A stretch of DNA of 64,000 bases from a virus: positions 11,637 to 75,636 of the IMG/VR virus record IMGVR_UViG_3300011116_001125, one strand, 5' to 3'. Each line of letters opens with the position of its first letter. Position 1 is the first letter of the stretch. Both the position numbers and the translations under genes were made by a program. A model generated the notes under the pieces. That model saw only the letters and a list, made by a program, of their open reading frames with translations. It made no database searches and was not told the DNA's origin. Shown here piece after piece: positions 46-64,000 of this stretch.

Positions 46-1920
46 ATGCCTTACCAAAAACTTCAGTTTAAGCCCGGATTTATTCGTGATCTTACCGCCT
101 ATACCAACAAAGGCGGTTGGTACGATGGCAATCTTGTTCGGTTTAGATTAGGTTTTCCTCAATCAATTGGTGGGTGGATTAAGTACACAACGGCACAGTT
201 TCTTGGTACTTGCCGCGCAATTTTTCCTTGGAACACGCTTAGCGGCAAGTTTTTCAATGCTATAGGTACGAGTTTAAAATACTATGTAGAATACGGCGGG
301 GCGTTCTATGATGTAACTCCACTACGTGATACAGTGGTATTAAATAACCCATTTACTGCGACAAATGGTTCCTCTATTATCAATGTGTACGATGTTGCGC
401 ATGGTGCATTGGATAATGATTTTGTTACATTTAGTGGAGCAGCAAGTTTAGGTGGAAACATCACTGCGGCAGTTCTTAATAAACAATTTCAAATCACTTA
501 TGTTGATGTCGATAACTACAAAATCACTGTTTCTGCTACTGCCAATAGTTCGGATACAGGTCATGGTGGGGCAACCGTAACCACTGCATATCAAATCAAC
601 ACGGGCATTAACTCCGCATTGGTCGGCGGTGGTTGGGGAGCAGGCACATGGGGGCGACTTACTTGGGGCAGTGCTATCCCCGTTACGGCTAATCTTTCTT
701 TACGCCTATGGTTTCAAGATAACTTTGGTGAAATACTATTGTTTAATGTTTATAATGGTGGAATTTATCTATGGAACCCTGCAAGCTCTTCTTTAACTAC
801 ACCACCGTACACGTTTAATCGTGCAGTTACACTAGCTAGCCTTTCAACTGATGCAACTACGCCTACGCTCGCTACGCAAGTCATGGTCTCTGATCGTGAC
901 AGGCACGTTATTGCTTTTGGTGCGAATATGGGTGGCTCTACTAGCCAAGATGCGTTGCTTATTCGGTTTAGCAACCAAGAAGATTATACAACATGGACTT
1001 CTACTGCCACGAACACGGCAGGTGACTTACGCCTTGGTACAGGTAGCCGCATTATCCGTGCGCTAGAAACAAAGCGTGAGATTTTAGTATGGACAGATTC
1101 AGCACTGTATTCAATGCAGTTTGTTGGACCACCCTATACGTTTGGTATTACCCAAATTTCTTCTGCCACTACCGTTATTAGCGCAAACGCTTTTGCAGCT
1201 ATTGACGATACTGTGTATTGGATGGGTAACCAAAAATTTTACGTTTATGATGGTGCAGCTAAAGAACTTGTTTGCCCGATTAAAAACTATGTTTTCAACG
1301 GCATGAATGGCGCACAGGTTGAAAAAATAACAGTAGGTGTCAATTCTGAATTCAACGAAGTAACGTGGTTTTATCCTTCAACCAACTCTTCTGATTGCGA
1401 CCTATACGTTACTTATAATTATGCTGATCAAGCATGGACGTATGGTAGTTTGGCACGCACTGCATGGGTAGACCGTGGGCAAGAAGGCTACCCGTTAGCT
1501 GCCGGAACAGACGGATATCTGTACTATCAAGAGTATGGTTCTAACGACGGTAGTACTAGCCCCGCTTCGCCATTAAATACGTATATTGAAAGTGCCCCGT
1601 TTGATATTGGCGAAGGCAATCAAATGTCTTTTGTCAAACAGCTTATTCCAGATGTTTCGTTTGTAGACTCCACAAACTCACCTAGCCTCAGCATGACGGT
1701 AAAGGTGCAAAACTATCCTGGAAGTAACTACAGCACTGCCCAAACAACTACTTCTGCTGTTACGCAAACGGCAACTGTTCCTATTGAACAGTATACTAAC
1801 CAAGTTTCTTTGCGGCTACGGGGTAGGCAAGTCACATTTCGCGTTGAAAGCAATAAAACCGATACAAGTTGGGTATTAGGTAGCCCTCGTTTGGACATAC
1901 AACCTGATGGGCGTCGCTAA
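46..1920 (+). CDS. Tail nozzle / stabilisation protein (P22 gp10 / T7 gp12-like beta-propeller)
   Basis: 624 aa beta-rich ORF (VIAFG, LIRFS, ILVWTD, VYWMG, YVTYNY); its homolog at 59590 lies between tail fibres and ejection proteins. Confidence 0.7.
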   Translation: MPYQKLQFKPGFIRDLTAYTNKGGWYDGNLVRFRLGFPQSIGGWIKYTTAQFLGTCRAIFPWNTLSGKFFNAIGTSLKYYVEYGGAFYDVTPLRDTVVLNNPFTATNGSSIINVYDVAHGALDNDFVTFSGAASLGGNITAAVLNKQFQITYVDVDNYKITVSATANSSDTGHGGATVTTAYQINTGINSALVGGGWGAGTWGRLTWGSAIPVTANLSLRLWFQDNFGEILLFNVYNGGIYLWNPASSSLTTPPYTFNRAVTLASLSTDATTPTLATQVMVSDRDRHVIAFGANMGGSTSQDALLIRFSNQEDYTTWTSTATNTAGDLRLGTGSRIIRALETKREILVWTDSALYSMQFVGPPYTFGITQISSATTVISANAFAAIDDTVYWMGNQKFYVYDGAAKELVCPIKNYVFNGMNGAQVEKITVGVNSEFNEVTWFYPSTNSSDCDLYVTYNYADQAWTYGSLARTAWVDRGQEGYPLAAGTDGYLYYQEYGSNDGSTSPASPLNTYIESAPFDIGEGNQMSFVKQLIPDVSFVDSTNSPSLSMTVKVQNYPGSNYSTAQTTTSAVTQTATVPIEQYTNQVSLRLRGRQVTFRVESNKTDTSWVLGSPRLDIQPDGRR

Positions 1921-2216
1921 TGGATGTAAGGCTTGTTTTACCCGCCTTTCAAATAGCGCCTAAAGAATACAGCCAAGGCTATTTGAACAACTTGGTGAAT
2001 ATGCTCAACATTGCTTTTACGGCAATGCGTTCTCCTGGAGAAGGTAGGCAATCTACGTTGGTAATCACCAATATGCCTTCAGATGGGTACAATTTAGAAA
2101 CAGGAACGTTGTTTCAAATAAACGGGGTGGTATACGTTTCAACTTTAAACAGGGCGTATACTTATGGACTTTCCGCTACAGGGGCAGTAGGCACCGTAAC
2201 TGTAAGCATTGTTTAG
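1920..2216 (+). CDS. Small virion protein, hypothetical
   Basis: Coupled to the nozzle gene; ends in a GLSATGAVGTVTV repeat like that of tail fibre 55564-57480; conserved copy at 61464. Confidence 0.65.
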   Translation: MDVRLVLPAFQIAPKEYSQGYLNNLVNMLNIAFTAMRSPGEGRQSTLVITNMPSDGYNLETGTLFQINGVVYVSTLNRAYTYGLSATGAVGTVTVSIV

Positions 2217-2217
2217 C

Positions 2218-2309
2218 TTGTGTTTTCTACAATGGGACAGTATGGTGAAAGGGCCAAGTATCAGGTAGGCCCCTGCATAAAGTTCCATACAACTTAAGGG
2301 TATGCTCTT
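2218..2309 (+). promoter_or_regulatory. Sigma70-like promoter (TTGTGT-N17-TATGGT) and structured leader
   Basis: -35, -10 and leader are conserved in the diverged copy (61762-61852) while the spacer differs; CATAC-AACTTAAGG-GTATG hairpin over the RBS. Confidence 0.6.
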
Positions 2310-3776
2310 ATGCAAGGCATTGAATCACTTGTACCTGACCAAGCTGCTCCGATGGATGATAATTCTGCCATTGTTGAGCAAATAAAGGCGCAGCTTCCGC
2401 CTGAGTTGGTTAATGAACTGCAAGCCGTAATTACGCGGATTGCTAGTTTGCCCGTTGAAAATATTCAAAAGTTTTTATCTATTTTGGATTATATTGACCA
2501 AAATAGCGATAACTATGATCAAGTTGTACAGCAACTTGTACAAAGCGGCGATATTCAACAAGGTGACCTGCCCCCGCAATACGACCCTTCTTTATTTTCT
2601 TCTATTAAAGAAGTTGCTAATCTTGCACTGCAAATAAAGCAGGGGGCAGGGGCAACTCCTGAAATGCCGATGGAAATGGCTATGGGAGGCCTTGCTTCAT
2701 ACGGGCGCAACGGCGACACAATGTTGGCGCATATCAGCCCTTACGAAGCTAACATCCTACGTAGTTATGGCGGGGCAGGCACCATCAACCCACGCACAGG
2801 CTTGCGCGAATACGGTTTTGATTTCGGTAGTTTGTTTAAAAGTATCGCGCCTGTACTCGGTGCCGTTGTTGGCTCATTCTTGCCTTTTGGCAGTGTTATC
2901 GGCCCTGCTATCGGTAGTTTTGCTGCAAGTAAATTGGCGGGTAATTCTACAGAAGATGCTCTTTGGGGAGCTGCCGCTGCGGGTGGACTAGGCTATTTTG
3001 CAGGACAAACAACTGCCGCGCAACTCGGGGGCTACGGCACAGAAGGTACTTCACTTGGCTCGGCTGTTCTTAAAGGCATACAAGCTCCTGCCACACAGGG
3101 TGGGGGCATTGGTTCCTTGTTTAGTATGAACGCCCCTACTGTTCCACCACCGCAAGGTGCACCCGTTGGTGCGATGCCTACGGATGCGTCTAAAGTGTTT
3201 TCACCGCCACCAAGTGCCACAGCACCCGCAGCCGCCACAACTGGCTCTACAGCCACGGCTGGGGCCTTTGACCCGCGCACCTTTATTTCGGCTTCGCCTT
3301 CGCAACTGCAAGCAGCTAATCTTACTTCTGATCAGTTAAAACAAATTGTAGACCTTAAGGCTAACTACAAAGCCTTGGGCCTTGCTACGGGGCCAAACGA
3401 TTGGATGTCTGGGATTAGTAATTTTGTAACCCAAAATCCGTTGCCTACAGCTATGTTGCTTTCCACAATAGCTTCATTGGATAGGCCAGAAGAAGATAAT
3501 ACCCCATTGGTCACAGCAGGCCAAAAATACCGTACAGACCCTAGCAAATATAATATCCTTGCAAAAGGCGGTATGCCAGTGAGCGAAGTTGATGCGCGTG
3601 TGGGTGGGCACTTACAGGGTCCAGGAACAGGCACAAGTGACAGTATTCCAGCGCGACTTAGCGATGGTGAGTTTGTAATGACCGCAAAGGCTGTACGCGG
3701 CGCAGGTGATGGTGACCGTAAAGCGGGCGCACGCCGCATGTATCAGTTAATGCACGAATTTGAAAAAAGGGCCTGA
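2310..3776 (+). CDS. Putative internal virion / ejection protein
   Basis: 488 aa; GDTMLAHI...GGAGTINPRTGLREY motif, hydrophobic Gly/Ala segment, C-terminal GPGTGTSDSIPARLSDGEFV motif typical of phage virion proteins. Confidence 0.6.
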   Translation: MQGIESLVPDQAAPMDDNSAIVEQIKAQLPPELVNELQAVITRIASLPVENIQKFLSILDYIDQNSDNYDQVVQQLVQSGDIQQGDLPPQYDPSLFSSIKEVANLALQIKQGAGATPEMPMEMAMGGLASYGRNGDTMLAHISPYEANILRSYGGAGTINPRTGLREYGFDFGSLFKSIAPVLGAVVGSFLPFGSVIGPAIGSFAASKLAGNSTEDALWGAAAAGGLGYFAGQTTAAQLGGYGTEGTSLGSAVLKGIQAPATQGGGIGSLFSMNAPTVPPPQGAPVGAMPTDASKVFSPPPSATAPAAATTGSTATAGAFDPRTFISASPSQLQAANLTSDQLKQIVDLKANYKALGLATGPNDWMSGISNFVTQNPLPTAMLLSTIASLDRPEEDNTPLVTAGQKYRTDPSKYNILAKGGMPVSEVDARVGGHLQGPGTGTSDSIPARLSDGEFVMTAKAVRGAGDGDRKAGARRMYQLMHEFEKRA

Positions 3777-3779
3777 TAA

Positions 3780-7396: not shown

Positions 7397-7406
7397 GGGG
7401 CAGTAA

Positions 7407-12435: not shown

Positions 12436-12439
12436 GTAC

Positions 12440-12661: not shown

Positions 12662-12663
12662 GC

Positions 12664-13026: not shown

Positions 13027-13034
13027 GAGGCTGA

Positions 13035-19529: not shown

Positions 19530-20384
19530 ATGAACGGCGAAGGGCAGTTCTTTTATTGGATAAATGAGCGCCATTCTATCTATTTGTCTAAGGCGGCGGG
19601 TAATCCAAAACCTTGGACAAGTGATAGTATTTTCCAACAGTACAAGTTTACGAACCCTTTTAGGGAGCTAGACAAAACAACTGTATGGATGCGCGAACAT
19701 TTGACCAATCCCAACAAAAATGCCCCCATAGCCGAAACCCTGTTCAACTGTTGCGTGTTCCGCATGTTTGGCACGATGGAAATGGGCGAGGCTTTGGGTT
19801 GGATAAAGCAGTGGGATCCTGAATATGTGAAAAGTCTTGCCCGTGGTCGGTTGAGCATGGGGCTTAAAGTATTCACAGGGGCATACATTATCACTAACCA
19901 AGGGTTGAAAAACCCAAAGGAAGAGGTAGTATGCGATATGTTTCTGACCCCCGTATGGAAAGCCCGTGATCAGTTAGCCGAGTGCATTGAGCAAACAAAT
20001 AGTTTGGAAGCACTGCACAAGGAACTTGGCAAGTTTGCAGGATGGGGCGGCGGGGGCTTTATGGCCTACGAAGTAGTAACCGATCTTAACCATACTAGCG
20101 CCATGCCAGAGCCAGTTGATAGGTTTACGTGGGCCAATGCAGGTCCAGGAGCAAAGCGGGGTCTTAACCGTTTGCATGGTCGCCCCTTGGATAAAGCCAA
20201 TGGCGTAGACTGGAATAGCGAAATGCAACAGCTATTGGAGCTCGCCCCAAAATACTGTGACCCCGAAGTATTAGCTCAAGTTGTAGATATGCGCACGATA
20301 GAGCATAGCCTGTGCGAATGGGATAAGTACCAACGGGTACTACTCGGCCAAGGTAAACCACGAAGCCTGTACAAAGGAATTTAG
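19530..20384 (+). CDS. 5-hmdU DNA kinase helical domain / aGPT-pyrophosphorylase clade 1 protein
   Basis: FFYWINERHSIY...PWTSDSIFQQYKFTNPFRELD, FTGAYII, FMAYEVVTDL, AGPGAKRGL, IEHSLCEWDKY. Confidence 0.85.
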   Translation: MNGEGQFFYWINERHSIYLSKAAGNPKPWTSDSIFQQYKFTNPFRELDKTTVWMREHLTNPNKNAPIAETLFNCCVFRMFGTMEMGEALGWIKQWDPEYVKSLARGRLSMGLKVFTGAYIITNQGLKNPKEEVVCDMFLTPVWKARDQLAECIEQTNSLEALHKELGKFAGWGGGGFMAYEVVTDLNHTSAMPEPVDRFTWANAGPGAKRGLNRLHGRPLDKANGVDWNSEMQQLLELAPKYCDPEVLAQVVDMRTIEHSLCEWDKYQRVLLGQGKPRSLYKGI

Positions 20385-20385: not shown

Positions 20386-21384
20386 ATGTCATACGTACAA
20401 GACCCACCCTACTGCATCCAAGTAGAATTAACTGAAGGATGCAACTTGGGTTGTAGCTTCTGCGGGTTGCAACACATTCGTGATAACGGTGCCAATGGCC
20501 CCGAAGATAAACACGGTAAAGCCTCCTTTATGAAGTTTTTAACCGTGGAAAATGCGGAGGTTATTGCAAGCCGTATAGCCGAAGCTAAATGGACCCCCCG
20601 TATTGAGTTTGCCATGCACGGCGAGCCAACCATGAACCCTAATTACATTGAAATTGTAGGGGTGTTCCGTAAGAATTTACCGAAAGCCAGTTTGCAGTTG
20701 ACCAGTAATGGCGGCGGGCTACTCAAAGGCCAAGGGTTCAGTAGCAATATCAACGCGCTTATGGAAGCGGGCCTGAACATACTTAGTTTAGATAACTACG
20801 ATGGCATACGTATCGTTGATAAAATTTTGCAAGGATACAATGGGCCACATCGCGTATGGAAATACCCGCAAGAAATTATGGGCAACCCTCATCGCCGCCG
20901 CAAGCCGCATGAACACGATATTGTAGTTATTCAAGATATTGAAGCCGCTACCAAAGGCAATCACAGTATACTCAGCAACCACACAGGCGGGAGCTTTCCG
21001 CTTAATGATAAAATGGCAGGGAAGCGTTGTGCAAAGCCCTTCCGTGAACTTAGCGTGCGTTGGGATGGCAACGTAGCGATGTGCTGTAACGACTGGCCCG
21101 GACGCTACAAAATCGGCAACTTGTTAGAAACAGCAATAAGTGAGCTTTGGCTAGGTGAAGCCTTCCAAGCCGCTAGACAAGCCTTGTATCATGGACAACG
21201 GACATTCACACCTTGTAAAGGTTGTGACCATGTAAGTTACCGTCCAGGATTGTTGCCTGATGCCAAGGGTAAAGAAACATTACCAAAGCCTGATGCGCAA
21301 ACGTGGGCAGTAATAGAAAAATACACAAGTGGTGAGCCTTACACTCCAAAAGTAAAAAGGCCGTGGGATGGAGTAATTAAGTGA
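20386..21384 (+). CDS. Radical SAM enzyme with SPASM/twitch domain
   Basis: CNLGCSFC motif; HGEPT; CAKPF...DGNVAMCCND...CKGC. Confidence 0.9.
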   Translation: MSYVQDPPYCIQVELTEGCNLGCSFCGLQHIRDNGANGPEDKHGKASFMKFLTVENAEVIASRIAEAKWTPRIEFAMHGEPTMNPNYIEIVGVFRKNLPKASLQLTSNGGGLLKGQGFSSNINALMEAGLNILSLDNYDGIRIVDKILQGYNGPHRVWKYPQEIMGNPHRRRKPHEHDIVVIQDIEAATKGNHSILSNHTGGSFPLNDKMAGKRCAKPFRELSVRWDGNVAMCCNDWPGRYKIGNLLETAISELWLGEAFQAARQALYHGQRTFTPCKGCDHVSYRPGLLPDAKGKETLPKPDAQTWAVIEKYTSGEPYTPKVKRPWDGVIK

Positions 21385-22343
21385 ACGTCGATCTATTTTA
21401 TCTTAGCCCTAACCCGTATGGTGGATGGGTTACCTTCACCGCGCATTTGGTTGAGGCTTTGAAAACGGTTGGTATCAAACCAAACTTGTATCGTATTAGG
21501 CCGCGCAGTGAAAAGAAACCACGGCCCTTTGGTTACGATCTGCATTACACAAACATCAGTTTGCAAGATGCTTTGCGTAGCCCGAACAAGAAGTTGATTG
21601 TAGCCGCCGCTAAAAACTTTGCGGAGGAAACTTCGGCGCTGTACTCAGCGGGTGCCGCGCTTGTAGTGCATGATCCTACCGAAATCAAAAACCTACCACC
21701 GTTAGATGGCAAGATCATTGTTATTCGGCAGATTGGTTTAACGTATCTGCCAAAAGCCGTGTTCATACGGCACCCGTATCAACGTAGGCCCGAGTATGAA
21801 ATATTCAACCGTACAACACGGGCTATCAGCACTTCGCGTATTGACTTTGACAAGCATACCGCGCTGATACTTGATGCAAATAGGTTAGTGCCCGATGAAG
21901 TTAAGTGCAGGATATATGGTTTTGAAAACCGCATCTACACACGATTTAAGATAGTACCTCATTACCCTGAATGGGAACAAAGCAAAGCGGCTTATCCCCG
22001 CAGTAAAGAAGCCGCGTTTAAGTTGCTTTCTTACGCGCAACTTGCCGTGGATATGAGCCTTATTAAAGGTGATGGCGGTGGTACTCAATACACAACACTG
22101 GAAGCATGGGATGCAGGTGCAGTTCCGGTTATCCAACGTGCGTGGCTAATGCCCAAAGATGATATGGTTGAAAACCAAAACTGTTTTGCAGTAGGTAACG
22201 CCGATGAGTTAGCCGCATTGTTATCAGACGTAGGGAATACTTCATACTTGGATAACTACCGCGAGTATGGATATAAGCAGTTGGCGCTCCACCATCCCAA
22301 GGTTATTGGTGAACGCTATAAAGCCGTTTTAGAAGCTATTTGA
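21381..22343 (+). CDS. Putative GT-B glycosyltransferase
   Basis: N-terminal YGGW; SRIDFDKH; GGTQYTTLEAWDAGAVPVI resembles the GT4 E-A-x-x-x-G-x-P-V signature. Confidence 0.6.
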   Translation: MNVDLFYLSPNPYGGWVTFTAHLVEALKTVGIKPNLYRIRPRSEKKPRPFGYDLHYTNISLQDALRSPNKKLIVAAAKNFAEETSALYSAGAALVVHDPTEIKNLPPLDGKIIVIRQIGLTYLPKAVFIRHPYQRRPEYEIFNRTTRAISTSRIDFDKHTALILDANRLVPDEVKCRIYGFENRIYTRFKIVPHYPEWEQSKAAYPRSKEAAFKLLSYAQLAVDMSLIKGDGGGTQYTTLEAWDAGAVPVIQRAWLMPKDDMVENQNCFAVGNADELAALLSDVGNTSYLDNYREYGYKQLALHHPKVIGERYKAVLEAI

Positions 22344-22360
22344 TAATAGTAGGGCATACC

Positions 22361-23350
22361 ATGTACACAATAAAGGTTAGAAACGTTTCTGAGGCCCTCT
22401 ACGTTGGTCTAGGTGCTATCAAAAGTACGGGGGCTAAAATACAAAGCCGCGCAGGTGAAACCCTTGAAATGCCTGCTCCTGTATGCACAACGTACAGTCA
22501 CCCTATGGAGCGTGTGTTGTTCTACCCGCAACGTGACGCTAACCCGTTTTTCCACTGCTTAGAAGCACTGTGGATGTTGGCAGGGCGCAACGATGTGGAG
22601 TTCCTTAAGCGTTACAACAAACGCATGGAAACATATAGCGATGGCAATGATATATTGCACGGAGCTTATGGGCACAGATGGCGTAATTGGTTTGGCATTG
22701 ACCAGTTGGATATCGCTGTAAAACGGTTGAAAAAATACCCCAACGATAGACGCACCGTCGTGCAAATGTGGGATAGTGAAAATGATTTGTATGAAGGTAA
22801 CCAGTTAAAAGATATCCCTTGTAACACGCAAATATACTTTAAGGTGCGTGAAGGGCGTTTGAACATGATGGTTACATGCCGTAGTAATGATATGATATGG
22901 GGCGCGTATGGCGCAAACGCAGTTCACTTTTCAATGTTACAAGAATACGTTGCCGCTAGAGTAGGTGTGCCCGTAGGGACGTATCACCAAGTGAGCGATA
23001 GCTTCCATGCTTATACGGACGTGCTTACTAAGTTGGATAACTTGGTTGCCGATTATGACCCCTACTATGAGTTCGATTACTTGGTGCAACCTTTGGTAAC
23101 GGATGCTGCCAAGTTTGATGAAGAACTTCGTAGGTTTTTTGATTCATCGCCACTTACACGTGTCTACCGCAATATGTTTCTTGGCAATGTAGCCGACCGT
23201 ATGCGTGCGGCCCATGCACTATGGCGCAGTGGCGATATGGACGAAGCCCTGAGTATGGCGGGTGCTATCACTGCGCCGGATTGGCGTAAGGCTTGTGTAG
23301 AATGGTTGGAACGCAGGAGAAAGAGCGATGAGCAAGACATTAGAAAATAA
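22361..23350 (+). CDS. Thymidylate synthase family, probable dUMP hydroxymethyltransferase (ATG 22361)
   Basis: GAYGHRW, DRRTVV, DIPCN (catalytic Cys), CRSNDMIWG..AN (Asn suggests dUMP), SFHAY. Confidence 0.85.
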   Translation: MYTIKVRNVSEALYVGLGAIKSTGAKIQSRAGETLEMPAPVCTTYSHPMERVLFYPQRDANPFFHCLEALWMLAGRNDVEFLKRYNKRMETYSDGNDILHGAYGHRWRNWFGIDQLDIAVKRLKKYPNDRRTVVQMWDSENDLYEGNQLKDIPCNTQIYFKVREGRLNMMVTCRSNDMIWGAYGANAVHFSMLQEYVAARVGVPVGTYHQVSDSFHAYTDVLTKLDNLVADYDPYYEFDYLVQPLVTDAAKFDEELRRFFDSSPLTRVYRNMFLGNVADRMRAAHALWRSGDMDEALSMAGAITAPDWRKACVEWLERRRKSDEQDIRK

Positions 23351-23642
23351 TTTGGCTGAGTTAGCAAAAGCCGATGTAGAAGGTTTAATGCGTGCGCAAA
23401 TCAGCTATGGCAATAGTTGGAAGCGTAGAGGTGGCGTTGGTGCGTTTATGATGTTAGCCCGTAAGTGGGACCGCATAAGCAATCAATGCAAGAAGGTTGG
23501 TTGGGATGTATTCAAAGCCATAGAAAATGACCCAAGTGATACAGGTATTTTAGATGACATACGTGACCTACGCAGATACCTTTTGTTAGTACACGAGGAA
23601 ATGCAACGTAATGGATATAAAGATCCCGGATCACTTGATTGA
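23328..23642 (+). CDS. MazG-like nucleotide-modification-associated protein
   Basis: SYGNSW...ARKWDRI...DDIRDLRRYLLL all-alpha pattern; adjacent to the TS-like gene. Confidence 0.55.
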   Translation: MSKTLENNLAELAKADVEGLMRAQISYGNSWKRRGGVGAFMMLARKWDRISNQCKKVGWDVFKAIENDPSDTGILDDIRDLRRYLLLVHEEMQRNGYKDPGSLD

Positions 23643-23740: not shown

Positions 23741-25678
23741 ATGATGAGCAACCTATGGATGAACAAGGAGTGGGTGATGCCAGAGGCATTGCCGAGCTTC
23801 TCCGACGCGGCAGAAATATCCATTGACCTTGAAACATACGACCCCCGCCTAACTACACATGGCAGTGGATGGGCACGTAAGGAAGGTGAAATTATTGGCG
23901 TTGCCGTAGCTGTTGATGGCGAGGCTATGTATGTTCCTGTGCGCCATAAAAACGGGCAGAATATTGATTGGCGACGTGTGCATTATTGGTTGAAAACAAT
24001 ATGCGGAAACCCTAACCGTGATTATGTATTTCACAACGCCATGTACGACGTTGGTTGGTTATGGTCCGAGGGTATTGAAATCAAAGGCCGCATTGTTGAT
24101 ACAATGGTTGCCGCGCCGTTAATCGATGAGAACCGTTATAGTTACTCGCTCAATGCGCTTAGTAAAGACTACTTAGGCGAAACTAAAAATGAATACCTGC
24201 TAAAAGAAGCCGCCGCTCAATTTGGCGTGAACCCAAAAGCAGGGATGCACTATCTACCCGCACAGTTCGTTGGGCCTTATGCTGAGCAAGACGCTGCCCT
24301 TACACTGAAACTATGGCAACACTTCAAAAACATTATCATTCGCGATGAGTTGCAGGATATTTTTGACCTTGAGTTGCGCGTTCTACGTGTGTGTATTGAA
24401 ATGCGTAAGAAAGGTGTGCGCGTAGATGTTGAGCGTGCCGAGCAAATAAAGCGCGATTTAGAAAAGCGTGAGCAAGCTATATTAGGTGGTTTGAAAAAGG
24501 AATATGGCGTAGCGGTCGATATCTGGGCGGCGGCGAGTATTGCCAAAGCGTTTGATGCCGTAGGCTTGGAATATGAGCGCACGGAAAAAACCAATGCGCC
24601 GAGCTTTACCAAAAACTTTCTTGCTAACCATCAACACGCACTGCCCCGAGCAGTTGTGCAAGCGCGTGAGCTCAACAAAGCACGCACTACGTTTATTGAT
24701 ACGATATTAGGCCATCAGCATAATGGGCGTATCCATGCTGAAATGCACCAGTTGCGCAGTGATGATGGCGGTACGGTTACAGGGCGATTCAGCTACAGCA
24801 ACCCGAACTTGCAACAAATTCCCGCACGTAACCAAGAAATCGGGCCACTGATACGTGGCTTGTTTTTACCCGAAGAAGGTGAGTTGTGGGGCGCGTTTGA
24901 CTACAGTAGCCAAGAACCACGCATCGTTGTTCATTATGCTTCGTTGCTTGATTTCACAGGTGCCGCAGACTTTGTTGAACAGTACGCAAAAGATGCACGC
25001 ACGGACTTCCACCAACTTGCGGCGGATATTGTTGGTGTGCCCCGCAAGAAAGCCAAAGACATCAATTTGGGTTTGTTCTATGGCATGGGGCAGAAAAAGC
25101 TAGCCGACCAGTTAGGCTTGGAGCTTGAAGATGCCAAGGAACTGTTTACCTTGTATCACAACAAAGTGCCTTTCGTGCGGCAGTTAAGTGATTACGCAAT
25201 GAACCGTGCGAATAGCAGAGGGATTATTCGTACTTTATTAGGTAGGCGTTGCCGCTTTGATATGTGGGAACCTATGAAGTACGGTTTGCACAAGCCCTTG
25301 CGTCACGCAGAAGCGTACGCGGAACATGGCCCACAGATTAAACGTGCGTTCACTTACAAAGCACTTAATCGATTAATCCAAGGCAGTGCTGCAGACCAAA
25401 CGAAGTTGGCTATGGTAACAGCGTACGAAGCTGGATACTTGCCACTGATACAAGTGCATGATGAGTTGGATTTTAGTGTGGCAAGTGAACTTGATGCAAA
25501 GCGCATCGCCGAAATAATGGAAAGCTGTGTGGGCCTTGCTGTACCGAGCGTAGTGGATGCGGAGTTCGGTCTAACATGGGGCGAAGCAAAGCAAACATTT
25601 ACCGATAAACCTTGGACCCGTGGTTTGAAGCATAACCACTCAACAATGGAAACAAACAATGATCACACAGCTGAATAG
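23741..25678 (+). CDS. polA: DNA polymerase family A with 3'-5' exonuclease domain
   Basis: SIDLET, HNAMYD, TVTGRFS..PNLQQIP, DYSSQEPR, AKDINLGLFYGMG, IQGSAAD, QVHDEL. Confidence 0.95.
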   Translation: MMSNLWMNKEWVMPEALPSFSDAAEISIDLETYDPRLTTHGSGWARKEGEIIGVAVAVDGEAMYVPVRHKNGQNIDWRRVHYWLKTICGNPNRDYVFHNAMYDVGWLWSEGIEIKGRIVDTMVAAPLIDENRYSYSLNALSKDYLGETKNEYLLKEAAAQFGVNPKAGMHYLPAQFVGPYAEQDAALTLKLWQHFKNIIIRDELQDIFDLELRVLRVCIEMRKKGVRVDVERAEQIKRDLEKREQAILGGLKKEYGVAVDIWAAASIAKAFDAVGLEYERTEKTNAPSFTKNFLANHQHALPRAVVQARELNKARTTFIDTILGHQHNGRIHAEMHQLRSDDGGTVTGRFSYSNPNLQQIPARNQEIGPLIRGLFLPEEGELWGAFDYSSQEPRIVVHYASLLDFTGAADFVEQYAKDARTDFHQLAADIVGVPRKKAKDINLGLFYGMGQKKLADQLGLELEDAKELFTLYHNKVPFVRQLSDYAMNRANSRGIIRTLLGRRCRFDMWEPMKYGLHKPLRHAEAYAEHGPQIKRAFTYKALNRLIQGSAADQTKLAMVTAYEAGYLPLIQVHDELDFSVASELDAKRIAEIMESCVGLAVPSVVDAEFGLTWGEAKQTFTDKPWTRGLKHNHSTMETNNDHTAE

Positions 25679-26183
25679 AATTTGGCATTTACGCAGGGCA
25701 GGATACATTAAGCGTTATCATACAGTGCCTACAGTTGGGGATAGTCAAACCGTGAGTGCGCATTCTTGGGGCGTTGCAACACTAATCAATGAAATATGGC
25801 CCGATGCCAGTAAGCAAGTATTACTCGCTAGTTTGTATCACGATGTTGCCGAAGTGTTGATAGGTGATACCCCTGCAACAGTGAAGTGGAAGTACGCCGA
25901 TTTTGCCGCCGCAATCGAAAAAGTAGAAAAAGAAGCGGAAGAAGAATTAGAACTGGAATTTGCGCTATCCCTGAGAGAGAAGCGCCAGTTGAAAATTGCC
26001 GATTTGTTAGAGCTGATGCTTTACGCAGGCGAACAAATAAAGATAGGAAACATGCACTTTAAAGAAGTACTGAATAACGGAAAAGAATACTTGCAAGTGA
26101 AATATGGAAATACCCCTGAGTTTAACGAAGCCTTCCCCATGTTCAACTATGCGCTAACAAGGCTTAGTCATTCTACCATGTAG
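25659..26183 (+). CDS. HD-domain 5'-deoxynucleotidase (YfbR-like)
   Basis: KRYH..QTVSAHSW, LYHDVAE..IGD.P..VK, LKIADLLE. Confidence 0.8.
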   Translation: MITQLNRIWHLRRAGYIKRYHTVPTVGDSQTVSAHSWGVATLINEIWPDASKQVLLASLYHDVAEVLIGDTPATVKWKYADFAAAIEKVEKEAEEELELEFALSLREKRQLKIADLLELMLYAGEQIKIGNMHFKEVLNNGKEYLQVKYGNTPEFNEAFPMFNYALTRLSHSTM

Positions 26184-26220: not shown

Positions 26221-26682
26221 GTGAACATATTCGCCTTACACACTGATCCTGTAATTGCGGCGCAATGGCATTGCGATAAGCACGTTGTCAAAATGCCGTT
26301 AGAAACTGCTCAGATGCTTTGCACGGTGCATCACCATTACGGCTTTGATGCGCCCTATAAGCCTGCTCATGCTAACCATCCTTGTACTGTGTGGGCGGGC
26401 CAAACGATTGAAAATTACAAGTGGCTCTGGCGCTTAGGCATTGCCCTATGCGAGGAGTATACCCACCGATACAACAAAACTCATGCCTGCGAGCAAGTGT
26501 TAGCGATAGTGCGTTGCGCTCCACCTACACTCACGGCACGGGGTTACACAAAATTCGCGCAGGCCATGCCTGACGAATACAAGCACCACGATACACAAAT
26601 AGCTTATCAACAATATTATCGCGGTGCAAAATACCAGTTGGCTGTGTACACGAAACGTGAACCACCGCCGTTCATGCAATAG
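26221..26682 (+). CDS. Pyrimidine-dimer DNA glycosylase (DenV)-like protein
   Basis: MNIF.L...A..HCDKHVVKM.LE.AQML, HHPCTVW-type motif, FAQAMPD. Confidence 0.75.
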   Translation: MNIFALHTDPVIAAQWHCDKHVVKMPLETAQMLCTVHHHYGFDAPYKPAHANHPCTVWAGQTIENYKWLWRLGIALCEEYTHRYNKTHACEQVLAIVRCAPPTLTARGYTKFAQAMPDEYKHHDTQIAYQQYYRGAKYQLAVYTKREPPPFMQ

Positions 26683-35338: not shown

Positions 35339-35515
35339 TGGCTCTTCGCGCACGGTCATCGTCGCATCTTCCTCTGCTCATGTATCATGGTCCTCGTCTG
35401 ATCGGATCGTCGTCTCGTCTTACTTTTCGTCAGGTGATCTTACTCATCGGCAGGTCGTCTGACCAGGTCTCTTGAGCTATGCACCAGACGCAGGTCAGCT
35501 ATGCGTTTTTGTGGA

Positions 35516-51963: not shown

Positions 51964-51965
51964 AC

Positions 51966-52244: not shown

Positions 52245-52245
52245 C

Positions 52246-52518: not shown

Positions 52519-52536
52519 GTTTTAAAGGAGGTTTTA

Positions 52537-53657: not shown

Positions 53658-53659
53658 GT

Positions 53660-55351: not shown

Positions 55352-55380
55352 TAATAACTTATGGGATGTGAAATGATCAG

Positions 55381-55563
55381 ATGGAAGCTGCGGTTGTTGA
55401 TCTAACCACCAACATTGTCATAAACAAAATCGTTGCCGATGCCGCGACTGACCTCGCGCCTGATGGAACATGCCTTGTCGATGTTCCAGAAGGCACGGTT
55501 TACGATATAGGTTGGTTATGGGACGGCGTGAACTTTATTCCTCCTGTAGAGGGGGGAATATAA
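55381..55563 (+). CDS. Small tail-fibre-associated protein
   Basis: VINKIVAD...DIGWLWDGVNF.PP pattern. Confidence 0.55.
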   Translation: MEAAVVDLTTNIVINKIVADAATDLAPDGTCLVDVPEGTVYDIGWLWDGVNFIPPVEGGI

Positions 55564-57480
55564 GTGGCAACGAAAACCGTACTCCTAACCTCAGGTACAA
55601 CTTGGACTGTACCGTCTGATTTGGACACGACAGTTAACGTAACCGTTATTGGCATTGGCGGCGGCGGTGGTGGCGGCAGAAATACCAATGGTAATAATCC
55701 GGGTGCAGGTGGTGGCGGAGGCGGTGGTTGGTCAACTTCATCAATTAGTTTGTCTGGCGTTTCATCAGCTTTTTATTCAATAGGATCAGCTGGAACTGGA
55801 GCAACAGCAAGTGCTACAAGCGGGACCGCTGGTGGACAGACTTGGTTCAATAAAGCCGCAAATTCTGCGCCAGCATCTTCTACAAATGGTGTTGTTGCCA
55901 ATGGTGGCGGAGGCGGGGCTACAAACAGAACCGGAGGCACCGCAGGCTCAACAACTGGCGCAATCGGAACAACAACCAATGCGGGTGGCGCAGGTGGGAC
56001 TGCAGCCACTAACAATCAAAGCGGCGGCGGTGGCGGTGGTTCTGCGGGTAGCAGTCTTGGTGCAGGCACGGCAGGCGGCGCATCAGGCGCACAGAACGCC
56101 ACAGGTGGTGGTGGCGGCGGTGGTACGGGTGGTGCGGGCACTGCATCTGCTGCTACCAAACCAAGCGCGGGTGGCAATGGCGGTCTAAGTTATTCCGGTG
56201 GCGCAGGTGGAACAGGCGGGGCATCTTCAACCACTGCCGCCGCAGCAGGCGCTGGTAATGCTGGTTCAAACGGTGCGGGTGGCGGTGGTGGCGGTGGCAA
56301 CAGCAACGGTAGCAGCGGCTCAAGTGGTGCAGGTGGTGCAGGTGGTGCAGGCACTGAATACACAATCTCCGCAGGCGGGACGGCTGGCTCTGGTGGTGGC
56401 GGCGGTGGCAGCGGCGGAAATGCAAGTTCTAGTCTACCGGCTGCTGGCGCAACTGCGGGTAATTATGGCGGTGGCGGCGGTGGCGGCGGTGGCGCTGGCA
56501 ACGCTGGTGCAGCAGGTGGCAATGGCGGCAATGGCGCACAAGGTGCCATCATTATCACCTATACTGTCGCAACTTTAGTTTCCGTAACGGGGTTATCAGC
56601 AACAGGATCTGTTGGCACAGTAACAGTTACGCAAACTGCCAATGTCAGCCCAACGGGTGTATCAGCCACAGGCCAAGTTGGCACAGTAACAGTTACGGGT
56701 GCGGCTAATGTAACGACTACGGGCGTATCGGCTACCGGTGAAGTTGGCACAGTATCGGTCACGGGCACAGCCAATGTCAGCCCAACGGGTGTATCAGCCA
56801 CAGGCCAAGTTGGCACAGTAACAATTACGCAAACAGCTAATGTCAGCCTAACTGGCGTGTCAGCCACGGGTTATGTTGGTGACGCAACTGCTCAAACAAG
56901 CGTTGACGTCAGCCTAACTGGCGTGTCAGCCACGGGTTATGTTGGCGATGTAACTGCCATAGGTGGAGCCAATGCCGTTGTTACTGGCGTATCAGCCACA
57001 GGATATGTGGGCCAAGTAACGATTGACCTAGTAACAAAAACTATTGTTAATGTAGACGGTGTCAGTGCAACAGGCGCGGCTGGAACCGTTAGTGTCTCTT
57101 TATCGATTGACGTTCCTGTCACAGGAGTTAGTGGTACTGGTGCGGTTGGTTCAGTAGATATCTACCTTTCACCAAATGTTTCTGTAACAGGTGTCAGTGC
57201 GACAGGAGAAGTTGGTTCTGTAGAAATTCTCCCGGAGACAAATGTCCCTGTCACAGGCGTCTATGGAACGGGGCAGGTTGGAACAGTTTCGTTTATTTTG
57301 TCGCCTAACGCTTATGTTACAGGTGTACAGGCTATTGGATATGTCGGGCAAGTGCTTGTTTGGGGTGATATTGTGCCTTCGCAAACACCTTCGTGGACTA
57401 ACATTGCGCCCTCTGGTGATCCAAGTTATAGTGCAATCAACCCTTCGCAAAACCCCAACTGGGTTCAAATACCCGTATAA
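55564..57480 (+). CDS. Glycine-rich tail fibre / spike protein
   Basis: TSGTTWTVP, IGGGGGGG, long Gly-rich tract, then ~20-aa VTGVSATG.VG repeats. Confidence 0.75.
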   Translation: MATKTVLLTSGTTWTVPSDLDTTVNVTVIGIGGGGGGGRNTNGNNPGAGGGGGGGWSTSSISLSGVSSAFYSIGSAGTGATASATSGTAGGQTWFNKAANSAPASSTNGVVANGGGGGATNRTGGTAGSTTGAIGTTTNAGGAGGTAATNNQSGGGGGGSAGSSLGAGTAGGASGAQNATGGGGGGGTGGAGTASAATKPSAGGNGGLSYSGGAGGTGGASSTTAAAAGAGNAGSNGAGGGGGGGNSNGSSGSSGAGGAGGAGTEYTISAGGTAGSGGGGGGSGGNASSSLPAAGATAGNYGGGGGGGGGAGNAGAAGGNGGNGAQGAIIITYTVATLVSVTGLSATGSVGTVTVTQTANVSPTGVSATGQVGTVTVTGAANVTTTGVSATGEVGTVSVTGTANVSPTGVSATGQVGTVTITQTANVSLTGVSATGYVGDATAQTSVDVSLTGVSATGYVGDVTAIGGANAVVTGVSATGYVGQVTIDLVTKTIVNVDGVSATGAAGTVSVSLSIDVPVTGVSGTGAVGSVDIYLSPNVSVTGVSATGEVGSVEILPETNVPVTGVYGTGQVGTVSFILSPNAYVTGVQAIGYVGQVLVWGDIVPSQTPSWTNIAPSGDPSYSAINPSQNPNWVQIPV

Positions 57481-57489
57481 AGGTGAGTC

Positions 57490-59580: not shown

Positions 59581-59589
59581 GTTGATTAT

Positions 59590-61464
59590 ATGCCCCTACA
59601 AAAACTCCAATTTAAACCCGGATTTATCCGTGATTTAACGGCCTATACCAACAAAGGCGGTTGGTATGATGGTAACCTTGTGCGGTTTAGATTAGGGTTT
59701 CCACAATCTATTGGCGGGTGGGTCAAGTATTCGGCCAATACATTTTTGGGTATATGCCGAGCAATTTTCCCATGGAACACGCTCAGTGGTAAATTTTTTA
59801 ATGCCGTAGGAACAAGTTTAAAATACTACGTAGAATACGGTGGCGGTTATTATGATATTACTCCCCTGCGCGATACTGTAGTAATCAGTAATCCTTTTAC
59901 AGCCACCAACGGTTCTAACATCGTTAATGTGTTTGATCTTGCGCACGGTGCGTTAGAAGGTGATTTTGTTACTTTTAGTGGGGCAGTAAGTTTAGGTGGA
60001 AACATCACTGCTGCCGTGTTGAATAAAGAATTTGAAATAACGTATGTAGATACTGATAATTATAAAATTACTGTTTCTGCTACTGCCAATGCTTCAGATA
60101 CAGGAAATGGCGGCACAACTGTAACGGCTAGATATCAAATCAACACAGGCGTGAATACAGCCGTCACGGGCGGTGGTTGGGGTGCAGGTACGTGGGGGCG
60201 TCTTACATGGGGTAGTGCGGTTCCTGTTACAGCTAACACAGCATTAAGGCTTTGGTTCCAAGATAATTTTGGCGAAGTATTATTGTTCAATGTGAACAAC
60301 GGCGGAATTTACGTGTGGAACCCCGCAAGTTCTTCGCTTACCACACCGCCGTACACGTTTAACCGTGCAGTGACACTAGCTAGCCTTTCAACCGATGCAA
60401 CAACACCTACACTAGCTACGCAAGTGATGGTTTCAGACCGCGATAGGCATGTTATTGCTTTTGGCGCAAACATGGGTTCTACCTCTAGCCAAGATGCGTT
60501 GCTTATTCGGTTTAGTAGCCAAGAAGATTATGCCACGTGGACGCCTACTGCAACTAACACCGCAGGTGATTTGCGGCTTGGTACAGGTAGCCGTATTATT
60601 CGTGCGTTAGAAACAAAACGTGAAATTCTAGTGTGGACAGATTCTGCATTGTATTCAATGCAGTTTGTAGGACCGCCGTATACATTTGGTATCACACAAA
60701 TTTCATCTTCCACTACTATTATTAGCGCCAATGCTTTTGCCGCTATTGATGATCTTGTGTTTTGGATGGGCAACCAAAAATTCTACATGTATGATGGCTC
60801 AGCACGTGAGCTTGTTTGCCCTATTAAAAACTACGTGTTCAACAATATGAATGCTTCGCAGGTTGAAAAAATCACAGTAGGGGTTAATTCCGAATTCAAC
60901 GAAATCATCTGGTTTTATCCTTCCGCAAATTCTACCGAATGTAACCTATACGTTACGTATAATTACGTAGACCAAGCATGGACGTACGGTACATTGGCCC
61001 GCACCGCATGGGTGGATCGTGGGCAAGAAGGTTATCCAGTAGCAGCGGGCACAGATGGGTATTTGTATTATCAAGAATACGGTACTAACGATGGCAGCAC
61101 TGCACCTGCTTCGCCATTAAATACGTATATTGAAAGCGCCCCGTTTGAGTTAGGCGAAGGCAACCAAATGTCCTTTGTCAAGCAGTTGATTCCTGACGTG
61201 ACTTTTGTAGATTCTACAAACTCCCCTAGTTTGAACATGACATTAAAAGTTCAAAACTATCCGGGAGGTAACTACAGCACCGCCCAAACAACGTCCTCTG
61301 CTATTACGCAAACAGCAACTATTCCCGTAGAGCAGTATACCAACCAAGTATCGGTAAGGTTACGTGGCAGGCAGGTTACGTTCAGAGTGGAAAGCAATAA
61401 AACCGATACAGGTTGGGTATTGGGTAGCCCCCGTTTAGACATACAACCGGATGGACGCCGCTAA
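59590..61464 (+). CDS. Tail nozzle / stabilisation protein (variant copy)
   Basis: 624 aa, collinear homolog of 46-1920. Confidence 0.7.
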   Translation: MPLQKLQFKPGFIRDLTAYTNKGGWYDGNLVRFRLGFPQSIGGWVKYSANTFLGICRAIFPWNTLSGKFFNAVGTSLKYYVEYGGGYYDITPLRDTVVISNPFTATNGSNIVNVFDLAHGALEGDFVTFSGAVSLGGNITAAVLNKEFEITYVDTDNYKITVSATANASDTGNGGTTVTARYQINTGVNTAVTGGGWGAGTWGRLTWGSAVPVTANTALRLWFQDNFGEVLLFNVNNGGIYVWNPASSSLTTPPYTFNRAVTLASLSTDATTPTLATQVMVSDRDRHVIAFGANMGSTSSQDALLIRFSSQEDYATWTPTATNTAGDLRLGTGSRIIRALETKREILVWTDSALYSMQFVGPPYTFGITQISSSTTIISANAFAAIDDLVFWMGNQKFYMYDGSARELVCPIKNYVFNNMNASQVEKITVGVNSEFNEIIWFYPSANSTECNLYVTYNYVDQAWTYGTLARTAWVDRGQEGYPVAAGTDGYLYYQEYGTNDGSTAPASPLNTYIESAPFELGEGNQMSFVKQLIPDVTFVDSTNSPSLNMTLKVQNYPGGNYSTAQTTSSAITQTATIPVEQYTNQVSVRLRGRQVTFRVESNKTDTGWVLGSPRLDIQPDGRR

Positions 61465-61760
61465 TGGATGTACGTCTTGTACTACCTTCTTTTCAAGTAG
61501 CGCCTAAAGAATACAGCCAAAGCTATTTGAATAATCTTGTCAATATGATAAACGTGGCCTTTACGGCGATGCGTTCTCCCGGAGAAGGCAGGCAATCTAC
61601 TATTGTCATTACCAATATGCCAACTAGCGGTTACGGATTAGAACCCGGAACATTGTTTCAAGTGAATGGGGTGGTTTATATCACACGATTAAACGCCCCT
61701 TATGTTGAAGGTGTTTCTGCAACTGGAAGAGTCGGAGCGGTTACCGTCACTACAGTTTGA
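61464..61760 (+). CDS. Small virion protein (variant copy)
   Basis: Homolog of 1920-2216. Confidence 0.65.
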   Translation: MDVRLVLPSFQVAPKEYSQSYLNNLVNMINVAFTAMRSPGEGRQSTIVITNMPTSGYGLEPGTLFQVNGVVYITRLNAPYVEGVSATGRVGAVTVTTV

Positions 61761-61852
61761 CTTGTGTTTTATGCGTTGGGACGGTATGGTGGTTTGCCAA
61801 ATATCAGGTAGGCCCCTGCATAAAGTCCCATACAACTTAAGGGTATGCTCTT

Positions 61853-63355
61853 ATGCAAGGTATTGAATCACTTGTTCCTGATCAAGCTGCTCCAATGGGC
61901 GATAATTCCGCCATTGTTGAGCAAATAAAGGCTCAACTTCCGCCTGAATTGGTCAATGAACTGCAGGCCGTGATCACACGGATCGCAAGTTTGCCTGTTG
62001 AAAATATTCAGAAGTTTTTATCTATTTTGGATTATATTGACCAAAATAAAGATAATTACGATCAAGTTGTGCAACAACTTATGCAAAGCGGTGAAGTTCA
62101 GCAGGGGGACTTGCCCGCACAATACGACCCTTCGTTGTTTTCTTCTATCAAGGAAATCGCCAATCTTGCCCTACAAATTAAGCAGGGCGCGGGCAATGCT
62201 CCTACAGAAGCACCTCCACAATCATCACCTGAAATGCCTCCTATGGAAATGGCAGTAGGTGGGCTAGCCTCGTATGGGCGTAGGGGCGACACAATGTTGG
62301 CGCATATCAGTCCGTATGAAGCACGCATTTTGCGCAGCTATGGTGGTTCAGGAACAATCAACCCGCGTACGGGTTTACGTGAATACGGGTTTGATTTCGG
62401 TAGTTTGTTTAAAAGTATCGCACCTGTACTTGGTGCGGTAGTCGGTTCGTTTCTACCTTTTGGTAGCGTTATCGGCCCTGCAATCGGTAGTTTTGCTGCA
62501 AGTAAGCTAGCGGGTAATTCAACCGAAGACGCACTCTGGGGGGCTGCGGCTGCGGGTGGGCTAGGGTACTTTGCAGGCCAAACGACCGCCGCACAGCTTG
62601 GCGGCTACGGCTCTGAAGGCACTTCGCTTGGGTCTGCACTTTTTAAGGGTATTCAAGCGCCTGCTGAACAAGGCGGGGGCATTGGCTCTTTGTTTAGCAT
62701 GAGCGCACCAACTGTTCCGCCGCCGCAAGTGGCAACTACGGGTGCCATGCCTACTGACGCAAGCAAAGTATTTTCGCCACCGCCTCAAACTTCGGCGGCA
62801 ACCACGGCAGCGACTACAGCAGCTTCGCCTGCGGCTACGGGTGCATTTGATGCGCGTAACTTTATTTCAGCTACGCCGCAACAACTCCAAGCGGCTAATT
62901 TGACTTCAGATCAGCTTAAACAAATTGTAGACCTTAAAGCCAACTATAAAGCCTTGGGGCTTTCTGCAGGGCCGAATGATTGGATGTCTGGGGTTAGCAA
63001 TTTCGTTACGCAAAACCCACTGCCCACGGCTCTTCTGCTTTCGTCACTGGCTTCTTTGGATAAGCCTGAAAGTAATACGACGCCAGTGGTTACCGCAGGC
63101 CAAAGATACCGCGAAAACCCAAGCAAGTATAATATTCTTGCAAAGGGCGGTATGCCCGTAACCGAAGTTGATGCGCGTGTAGGTGGGCATTTGCAGGGTC
63201 CAGGAACAGGCACAAGCGATAGCATTCCAGCACGTTTAAGTGACGGTGAATTTGTAATGACAGCAAAAGCTGTTCGTGGTGCAGGTGAAGGCGACCGTAA
63301 AGCAGGGGCACGCCGCATGTACGAGCTAATGCACCAATTTGAAAAGAGGGCCTAA
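61853..63355 (+). CDS. Putative internal virion protein (variant copy)
   Basis: 500 aa homolog of 2310-3776 with insertions in low-complexity linkers. Confidence 0.6.
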   Translation: MQGIESLVPDQAAPMGDNSAIVEQIKAQLPPELVNELQAVITRIASLPVENIQKFLSILDYIDQNKDNYDQVVQQLMQSGEVQQGDLPAQYDPSLFSSIKEIANLALQIKQGAGNAPTEAPPQSSPEMPPMEMAVGGLASYGRRGDTMLAHISPYEARILRSYGGSGTINPRTGLREYGFDFGSLFKSIAPVLGAVVGSFLPFGSVIGPAIGSFAASKLAGNSTEDALWGAAAAGGLGYFAGQTTAAQLGGYGSEGTSLGSALFKGIQAPAEQGGGIGSLFSMSAPTVPPPQVATTGAMPTDASKVFSPPPQTSAATTAATTAASPAATGAFDARNFISATPQQLQAANLTSDQLKQIVDLKANYKALGLSAGPNDWMSGVSNFVTQNPLPTALLLSSLASLDKPESNTTPVVTAGQRYRENPSKYNILAKGGMPVTEVDARVGGHLQGPGTGTSDSIPARLSDGEFVMTAKAVRGAGEGDRKAGARRMYELMHQFEKRA

Positions 63356-63358
63356 TCA

Positions 63359-64000
63359 ATGGCTGAGACCACCTTAACCCAACAACAAACCTTGATGGAC
63401 CCAGAAATTGGGCCGTACCTCATTGGTTTGATGGAAAGTGCCAAACAGCAAGGTACCCTTTCTAAAGATGCAGTTATTCCTGAATACAAGTTTGCTGATT
63501 TTACGCCTGAGCAAAAACAGGCGTTTCAAATGGCGCAACAAGGTATTGGGTCATATCAACAGTTTTTTGATAAGTCCGGTGCGCTGTATGGCGATGCGGC
63601 AAAACAATTTGCGGCGCTTCCTAAATTTGGGACAGAAGCCGTAAAATCTGTATCTGATGCAAAAGCTGCCGCTGAGCCTTACATGGGTACTGCCGCAGAA
63701 AAATACGGCAAAGTAAGCGATATCGCTGGGCAGGGTATTGCTACCACAAAAGCGGGTGCCGAAGCTGCCAAGCCCTTGTTAAGCACGGCAGAAGGTTCGT
63801 ACCTTACACTGCCTACTTACGCTAAAGAAGCCGCAGCCACAACTGCTGCAGGTCGCGAAGCTGCATTAGGCAAAACAGGCCAAGCCGCTAAAGGTTATGA
63901 AAGCCTTACTGGTTACGCCGATACCGCACAACGTTTAGCGGCGGCAGGGGCACAAGGTTTTGACACTGCTAGCACCGCCAAGTTTATGGACCCTTACCCA
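63359..64000 (+). CDS. Putative ejection / pilot protein (variant copy, truncated by window end)
   Basis: MAETTLTQQQTLMDPEIGPYL homologous to the 3780 ORF. Confidence 0.65.
   Translation, partial: MAETTLTQQQTLMDPEIGPYLIGLMESAKQQGTLSKDAVIPEYKFADFTPEQKQAFQMAQQGIGSYQQFFDKSGALYGDAAKQFAALPKFGTEAVKSVSDAKAAAEPYMGTAAEKYGKVSDIAGQGIATTKAGAEAAKPLLSTAEGSYLTLPTYAKEAAATTAAGREAALGKTGQAAKGYESLTGYADTAQRLAAAGAQGFDTASTAKFMDPYP

Follow-up and report, generated by a model that had tools for sequence, protein, structure and literature searches.

Thymidine hypermodification through a 5-hydroxymethyl-deoxyuridine (5-hmdU) DNA kinase (5-HMUDK) is known from phages M6/YuA, ViI, phiW-14, SP10 and PaMx11 (PMC5889632, PMC8989533), in which the kinase shares a cassette with a thymidylate synthase (TS)-like hydroxymethylase, a phage DNA polymerase and a deoxynucleotidase, and the modification is post-replicative, partial, sequence-dependent and blocks restriction enzymes. 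Restriction digests indicate a TG/TC ('TS') preference in M6, ViI and phiW-14 (Flodman et al., PMC6449724), and mainly TG with less TC for the dapT modification of Acinetobacter phage SH-Ab 15599 (PMC13458397). Mapping of such modified thymidines is difficult: they are not called by sequencing platforms, and all contexts established to date were obtained with restriction-digest panels on a few cultured phages. The window analyzed in the current study is a stretch of 64,000 nucleotides from an uncultured freshwater phage (bases 11637-75636 of the 75,636-bp IMG/VR virus record IMGVR_UViG_3300011116_001125; the whole record is called G000). It carries a predicted cassette of this type at 19.5-23.6 kb, together with a genome-wide composition footprint (74..63580, both strands) in which nearly all surviving CCGG and CCWGG words have T at position -1 or A at position +1.

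Restriction-site (palindrome) avoidance in phage genomes is an established phenomenon. The footprint resembles this classic avoidance in that palindromes of 4-6 bp are strongly under-represented against a codon-aware null, but differs from it in being dependent on the neighboring base, in being coupled to positive selection of protective flanks, and in reaching the protein level. No paper describing such a composition footprint was found in a literature search.

An exact count gave 81 CCGG sites in the window, of which 79 were TCCGG or CCGGA, in agreement with the original prediction, which had read about 80 of them by eye. The two exceptions that it had named, ACCGGC (56437..56440) and ACCGGT (56735..56738), were located in the same 638-aa gene (55564-57480). 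CCWGG occurred 31 times, in 27 cases as TCCWGGA, and all positions previously listed for TCCWGGA were right within one base. The remaining four lie at 5459, 35463, 46172 and 51742. At the site earlier placed at 35461, GACCAGGTC (35463..35467), T is missing from position -1 of both strands, which is the case for no other CCWGG of the window; its TC steps lie on the 3' side in each strand, as had been noted, and it sits inside a TC-rich island. This strand-asymmetric island (window ~35100-36400) holds 102 TC and 35 GA per kb, compared with a genome mean of 39 +- 12 TC per kb.

Expected numbers were obtained by shuffling the whole 75.6-kb record 300 times in a codon-preserving manner, which keeps protein sequences and codon usage. 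Unflanked CCGG was observed 4 times against 137.5 +- 10 expected, while singly flanked (86 vs 72) and doubly flanked (11 vs 13.5) copies were not lost. For CCWGG, unflanked (1 vs 54) and singly flanked (4 vs 33) copies were both purged, and TCCWGGA, the doubly flanked form, was enriched 8-fold (30 vs 3.6 +- 1.7). In the non-redundant 58 kb of the record, unflanked CCGG numbered 2 vs 102 expected and TCCWGGA 26 vs 2.9. The shares flanked in this way under the null were 39% for CCGG and 4.6% for CCWGG, close to the half and under a tenth first suggested, and the purge thus persisted under codon control, as had been supposed. The bias was confined to position -1, positions -2 to -4 agreeing with the null, and in a scan of all cores with each of the four flank bases, T before CCGG or CCWGG was the strongest flank effect of the genome. 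The observation is therefore confirmed as exact and far beyond chance.

The enrichment of TCCWGGA and its shared reading frame are additions to what had been predicted. In the record, 29 of the 30 copies are read as NNT-CCW-GGA (for example TCCTGGA at 1716..1722, + strand, read as NNT-CCT-GGA, Pro-Gly), while TCCGG and CCGGA are spread over several reading frames. As Pro-Gly is encoded by CCN GGN, the dipeptide always creates CCNGG, and the core is fixed unless the protein changes; only the two wobble positions beside it are free to vary. There are 55 Pro-Gly dipeptides. The codon before them ended in T in all 43 cases where the amino acid permits this, and the Gly codon was GGA in 47, although GGA is the rarest Gly codon overall (12%). 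After Glu, Lys, Gln or Trp, whose codons cannot end in T, CCC-GGA was used in 11 of 12 cases, which places an A 3' of the embedded CCGG. The enrichment of TCCWGGA hence stems from Pro-Gly dipeptides, with the synonymous wobble positions carrying the bias. The dipeptide itself was depleted (observed/expected ratio (O/E) 0.54, vs 0.85-1.03 in genomes without the purge).

The ends of the record served as an evolutionary replicate. Its first 16 kb are a copy of its last 17.6 kb, 78-91% identical in six blocks. Protective wobble bases were kept between the two copies in 40 of 44 cases, compared with 68.5% at other T/A wobbles (p=8e-4), and in all four cases of change the core was gone too in the other copy. 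Selection thus acts on the DNA, and codon-pair bias is not the cause.

The cluster at 19.5-23.6 kb, which the original prediction had taken for the modification genes, was identified by sequence as a 5-hmdU-kinase hypermodification cassette. All of its genes lie on the + strand. The kinase (19530..20384) matches PF18723 (E=1.7e-49, 169 bits, cut-off 25) and is 33-37% identical to its homologs in YuA and PhiJL001. It is followed by a radical S-adenosylmethionine (SAM)/SPASM enzyme (20386..21384), found in common with relatives G002 and G005 only, and by a 320-aa protein (21381..22343) without Pfam or PHROG match, whose predicted structure (pLDDT 89.2, pTM 0.88) has the glycosyltransferase fold GT-B. 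The best Foldseek hit of this model was SenB (E=3.5e-11), and HepE, PimA, MshA and the T4 alpha-glucosyltransferase were also found; the protein has ~500 homologs and, judged from the model, is the probable donor of a bulky sugar moiety. The TS homolog (22340..23350; PF00303; phrog_5131, 1e-111) is 44-47% identical to the putative dUMP hydroxymethylases YuA gp17, PhiJL001 gp24 and Pam3 gp52 (for YuA gp17, a putative hydroxymethyltransferase by annotation, the value is 47%) and 27% identical to an SH-Ab 15599 gene annotated as deoxyuridylate hydroxymethyltransferase, suggesting that it is probably a dUMP hydroxymethylase as well.

A family A DNA polymerase with 3'-5' exonuclease (23741..25678, +) and an HD-domain YfbR-like 5'-deoxynucleotidase (25659..26183, +) adjoin the cassette, the latter being a candidate for clearing the dT nucleotide pool. 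The kinase, putative TS-like hydroxymethylase, polymerase and deoxynucleotidase correspond to those of the known 5-HMUDK systems, and a post-replicative, partial and sequence-dependent modification that blocks restriction enzymes would be expected here too. Unlike in those systems, the kinase has a GT-B glycosyltransferase and a radical SAM enzyme of the SPASM type as partners, and in sister phages it is combined with glycosyltransferases of other families. By gene content, the cassette appears to be a variant of the known kinase-dependent pathway and not a copy of it.

The footprint, with variations, was also present in four complete or near-complete relatives (G001, G002, G003 and G005), whose kinases are 42-60% identical to that of the record. 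Observed and expected unflanked CCWGG were 3/46 in G001, 0/18.5 in G002, 0/20.6 in G003 and 9/78 in G005, and TCCWGGA was enriched in G001-G003. In G003, CCGG was purged in every context (1 vs 58-59 expected), and in G005 a single flank was tolerated. A pooled set of 68 further loci of the kinase clade (1.25 Mb) contained 35 unflanked CCWGG vs 521 expected, 273 TCCWGGA vs 90 expected, and 119 unflanked CCGG vs 670 expected. In these loci T occupied the wobble before Pro-Gly in 84% (background 44%), and Gly was encoded by GGA in 85% (background 20%). Among 64 informative loci in this clade, 62 showed the CCWGG purge; L075/L076 (one phage), with a kinase that is 59% identical, showed no purge. 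Viral contigs of the kinase clade as a whole number at least 149 and come from both freshwater and marine environments.

Gene content groups the phage with the Pelagibacter phage HTVC023P and the lake phage DSL-LC04; identities to these are 30-80% for structural and replication proteins, and the replication module is syntenic. In these closest kinase-less relatives a profile search detected no kinase, and no cassette lies between helicase and polymerase. Neither depletion, flank bias nor Pro-Gly bias was found in them, so that the footprint follows the modification genes as had been foreseen. The only genes present in all footprint-bearing genomes and missing from HTVC023P and DSL-LC04 are those of the kinase and the TS homolog. 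The enzymes encoded between these two differ: G000 and G005 carry GT-B and radical SAM, G001 and G003 a GT4/GT1-type transferase, and G002 a TET-associated glycosyltransferase with radical SAM. Because the intermediate enzymes differ among G000-G003 while the footprint is shared, the kinase is the shared step able to set the context, and we infer that it sets TC.

Glycosyltransferases of three families (compact GT-B, GT4/GT1-type GT-B and TET-associated) were found at the equivalent kinase-adjacent site in sister phages (window 21381-22343; L020:2058-3350; L026:1624-2940; L022:14407-15192). This variety of transferases beside the kinase suggests glycosylated thymidine derivatives.

The modified context was read from composition by a flank test, in which the palindromes depleted in each genome were collected, and the survivors were examined for flanking T separately for each first base of the word. 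In G000 (p=9e-20), G001 (2e-16), G002 (5e-9) and G003 (0.011) the exemption conferred by a T flank was limited to words starting with C, with essentially none for words starting with G, A or T (A-start in G001 was weak, p=0.003). It persisted after all CCGG-containing words were excluded. The same held for the non-palindromic CCAGC/GCTGG in G000 (observed/expected 27/129 for VCCAGC, 24/34 for TCCAGC), for which no matching enzyme was identified. These results support TC in general as the protected context. Of the TC/TCC context originally proposed, TC accordingly stood, and the restriction to TCC did not, as other purged palindromes starting with C behave alike. CCSGG follows the CCGG rule, so no separate CCSGG enzyme is needed; RCCGGY in combination with any known CCSGG enzyme was considered as the source of the pattern and ruled out, as CCCGGA and TCCGGG are retained.

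With another clade of kinases the protected junction changes from T-C to T-G. The exemption was limited to words starting with G in genome G004 (p=3e-5), Pam3 (3e-11) and YuA (2e-15), apart from a weak exception for T-start words in G004 (p=0.03). In G004, unflanked GCGC was observed/expected at 17/87 and singly flanked GCGC at 161/83, unflanked GGNCC at 1/67, and CCWGG was not avoided. PhiJL001, G005 and SH-Ab 15599 showed exemption for both C- and G-start words, and the two kinase-less controls showed it for no class. In the kinase tree, in which several branches are long, the TC group stands apart from the group with G004, Pam3, SH-Ab 15599 and PhiJL001. The inferred context of the present phage is thus TC only, unlike the TG read for YuA, Pam3 and G004 in the same composition test.

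SH-Ab 15599 allows the read-out to be compared with experiment. Its composition was taken from MH517022 (first 100 kb, loci L041+L042). Hexamers containing TG were untouched (313 vs 313 expected, none purged), while TC-containing and other hexamers were purged, and CCGG was retained when doubly flanked (7 vs 9 expected) but not when unflanked (1 vs 37.5). The claim that the target context can be read from composition is in this way consistent with the digests of this phage. Its CCWGG sites are fully BstNI-resistant, the central T being in a TG step, and EcoRII and HpaII homologs occur among Acinetobacter baumannii proteins; HpaII cutting and CCGG are not treated there (PMC13458397). Since the T of CCWGG lies in a TG step, TC-type but not TG-type phages must purge or flank this word. 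CCWGG would thus be protected from the inside via TG in SH-Ab 15599, and from the outside in the present phage. In the available parts of PMC13458397 and PMC6449724, as here, the dinucleotide context is credited to the kinase, and sites relevant to the host are protected. Those contexts are derived from digests and the present one from composition, and no composition footprint, flank codon selection or TC-only clade is reported in these parts.

In the proposed mechanism, thymidine would be replaced by 5-hydroxymethyl-dU during phage replication, and a sequence-defined subset, T followed by C, would be picked by the 5-hmdU DNA kinase for hypermodification. The glycosyltransferase and the radical SAM enzyme would then build the chosen T into a bulky adduct in the major groove. 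Sequence-specific host nucleases would select against their own target sites, and sites containing a modified T, or adjoining one, would be shielded and retained. CCGG, which is free of T, and CCWGG, whose only T is in TG, would have no shield inside and would be purged unless a T lies directly 5' of the first C. For the CCGG-type enzyme one shielded strand would suffice, while the CCWGG-type enzyme would need both strands shielded in this genome. Where the protein forces the core, as in Pro-Gly (CCN GGN), the adjacent wobbles would become fixed as T and A.

Shielding of neighboring restriction sites by modification of T in TC is quite probably the best explanation overall, with the adduct chemistry predicted from the encoded enzymes and host restriction enzymes as the presumed selective agent. 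The original prediction is in this sense supported and widened into a general rule. Several results weigh against it. The summed O/E of TC-containing hexamers was 0.63 and not near 1, and in the closest relatives, L003/L004, the TC hexamer class was more depleted than the TG class; the hexamer-class sum is noisy and weaker than the flank test, and serves only as a weak supporting line. T-flanked CCGCGG and CGGCCG were also absent (0 vs ~15 expected each), so that shielding has to be enzyme-dependent, an auxiliary assumption. The CCWGG purge across the kinase clade is more uniform than varied hosts might lead one to expect. Finally, no transferase of the aGPT-Pplase type (1/2/3) was recognized among the cassette proteins with Pfam and PHROG; the 212-aa protein at 18890-19528 has no assignment.

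The uniformity of the purge in the clade would follow if the agent were intrinsic to the phage, i.e. if a phage nuclease or a step of the pathway damaged unshielded CC(N)GG whatever the host. The kinase-less relatives, which purge nothing, and two Pyr_excise-like proteins that travel with the cassette are in line with this idea. However, L075/L076 has the kinase and no purge, the other purged words vary strongly among genomes as host repertoires would, and no nuclease gene common to all footprint-bearing genomes, G005 included, was found. SH-Ab 15599 moreover has the CCGG footprint, and an HpaII homolog is found among A. baumannii proteins (PMC13458397). A phage-intrinsic agent is therefore considered unlikely. 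The differing purged words and the absence of a purge in L075/L076 fit changing nuclease repertoires of the hosts. Host enzymes could also produce a flank rule with no base modification, if their specificities were longer and excluded the T flank (e.g. VCCGGB). Degenerate specificities such as RCCGGY, RGCGCY and YGGCCR exist, and probably shape some of the GCGC and GGCC flank patterns, but a single genome can follow the T rule at many unrelated cores, and the rule tracks the kinase, flips to TG with the kinase clade and is missing in kinase-less relatives, which makes this explanation very unlikely.

Composition is blind to which member of a T:A pair matters, and the protecting base might be the adenine that pairs with the flank T, through methylation, for instance, or another modification at GGA. 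The phage encodes no DNA methyltransferase (N6/N4, C5 or Dam-type), while by sequence it encodes a complete 5-hmdU pathway, and the footprint co-occurs with the kinase, leaving a protective adenine highly improbable. Codon-pair or translational bias is suggested by the single reading frame of most TCCWGGA copies, but this frame is accounted for by Pro-Gly, the TCCGG/CCGGA copies use several frames, and kinase-less relatives with similar proteins lack the pattern. Mutational bias fares no better: for C5-methylation with deamination loss, which the original prediction had offered as an alternative to restriction, CCAG and CTGG are the expected products, and these were depleted, not enriched. An origin of the footprint in codon-pair or mutational bias is thus hardly credible, and T-in-TC modification that shields adjacent sites from host enzymes is retained as the preferred reading.

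Purging was not restricted to CCGG and CCWGG. The eight T-free hexamer palindromes together numbered 15 vs 123.5 expected under the codon-preserving null, and 19 hexamers had O/E < 0.2. Among the other genomes, G003 has lost all GC-only tetramers (observed/expected 0/42 for CGCG, 0/58 for GCGC), GCWGC is lost altogether in G001 (0/135) and G002 (0/86), and G004 is poor in TTAA (6/196) and GGWCC (1/72). Gly-Pro, which is always encoded by GGNCC, is depleted (O/E 0.45-0.60) in genomes that purge GGNCC (G001-G004, loci L019-L031), in parallel to the case of Pro-Gly and CCNGG. Further features of the record are that TC/GA is its most under-represented dinucleotide (rho* 0.73), that TCTC/GAGA and GAGAC/GTCTC are strongly depleted (GAGAC 16 vs 69.5 expected), and that CCTGC is enriched (334 vs 180). 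An 'economy' rule, by which the modified dinucleotide would be depleted, was rejected: TC is low (0.73-0.80) in G000 and the relatives nearest to it, but a corresponding lack of TG was not seen in TG-type phages.

Two genes near the cassette encode the Pyr_excise-like proteins, which are kept only in cassette-bearing relatives. The first is a small protein (23328..23642, +) with a weak Pyr_excise-like match, which outside the cluster-bearing relatives is kept in Pam3. The second (26221..26682, +; PF03013, 27.2 bits), similar to T4 endonuclease V, is present in G001-G003 and missing from cluster-less relatives.

The record has a G+C content of 47.4%, with almost all genes on the + strand. Its duplicated ends correspond to window 46356-64000, which matches G000 1-16052; of the latter, window 44-4416 lies in the stretch analyzed. 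Given this duplication, the true genome size is ~58 kb, as in relatives, and the record has the appearance of a circularly permuted genome that was over-extended in assembly from two strains. Parts of the phage DNA were found as assembled contigs in 20 public runs from at least 10 studies, with metagenomes from freshwater, estuary and sediment. A megablast search of the cassette against GenBank phages gave no match.

While the kinase-dependent pathway was already known, a TC-specific, glycosyltransferase-linked hypermodification of thymidine, as predicted here, and a transferable read-out of its context would be new. A broader proposal, for which the chances appear about even, is that a strictly TC-specific kinase clade with interchangeable glycosyltransferases makes an undescribed glycosylated thymidine, and that the context of any such phage can be decoded from its genome by the T-N junction that rescues purged sites. 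Such a reading of the modified context from sequence alone tells TC-type and TG-type kinases apart, agrees with the sole phage mapped in detail by digests, and can be extended to hundreds of uncultured phages.

On the genomic side, the footprint is also evidence for the protection of a site without any modifiable base by a modified base next to it. In PMC6449724, phiW-14 DNA is described as resistant at the T-free sites of ApaI, NaeI, NgoMIV, NotI and PspOMI, and a flanking T is proposed as a possible contributor; protection by an adjacent modified base would explain this resistance. Base modification and site avoidance would thus share the work of anti-restriction in these phages, down to the loss of Pro-Gly from their proteins.

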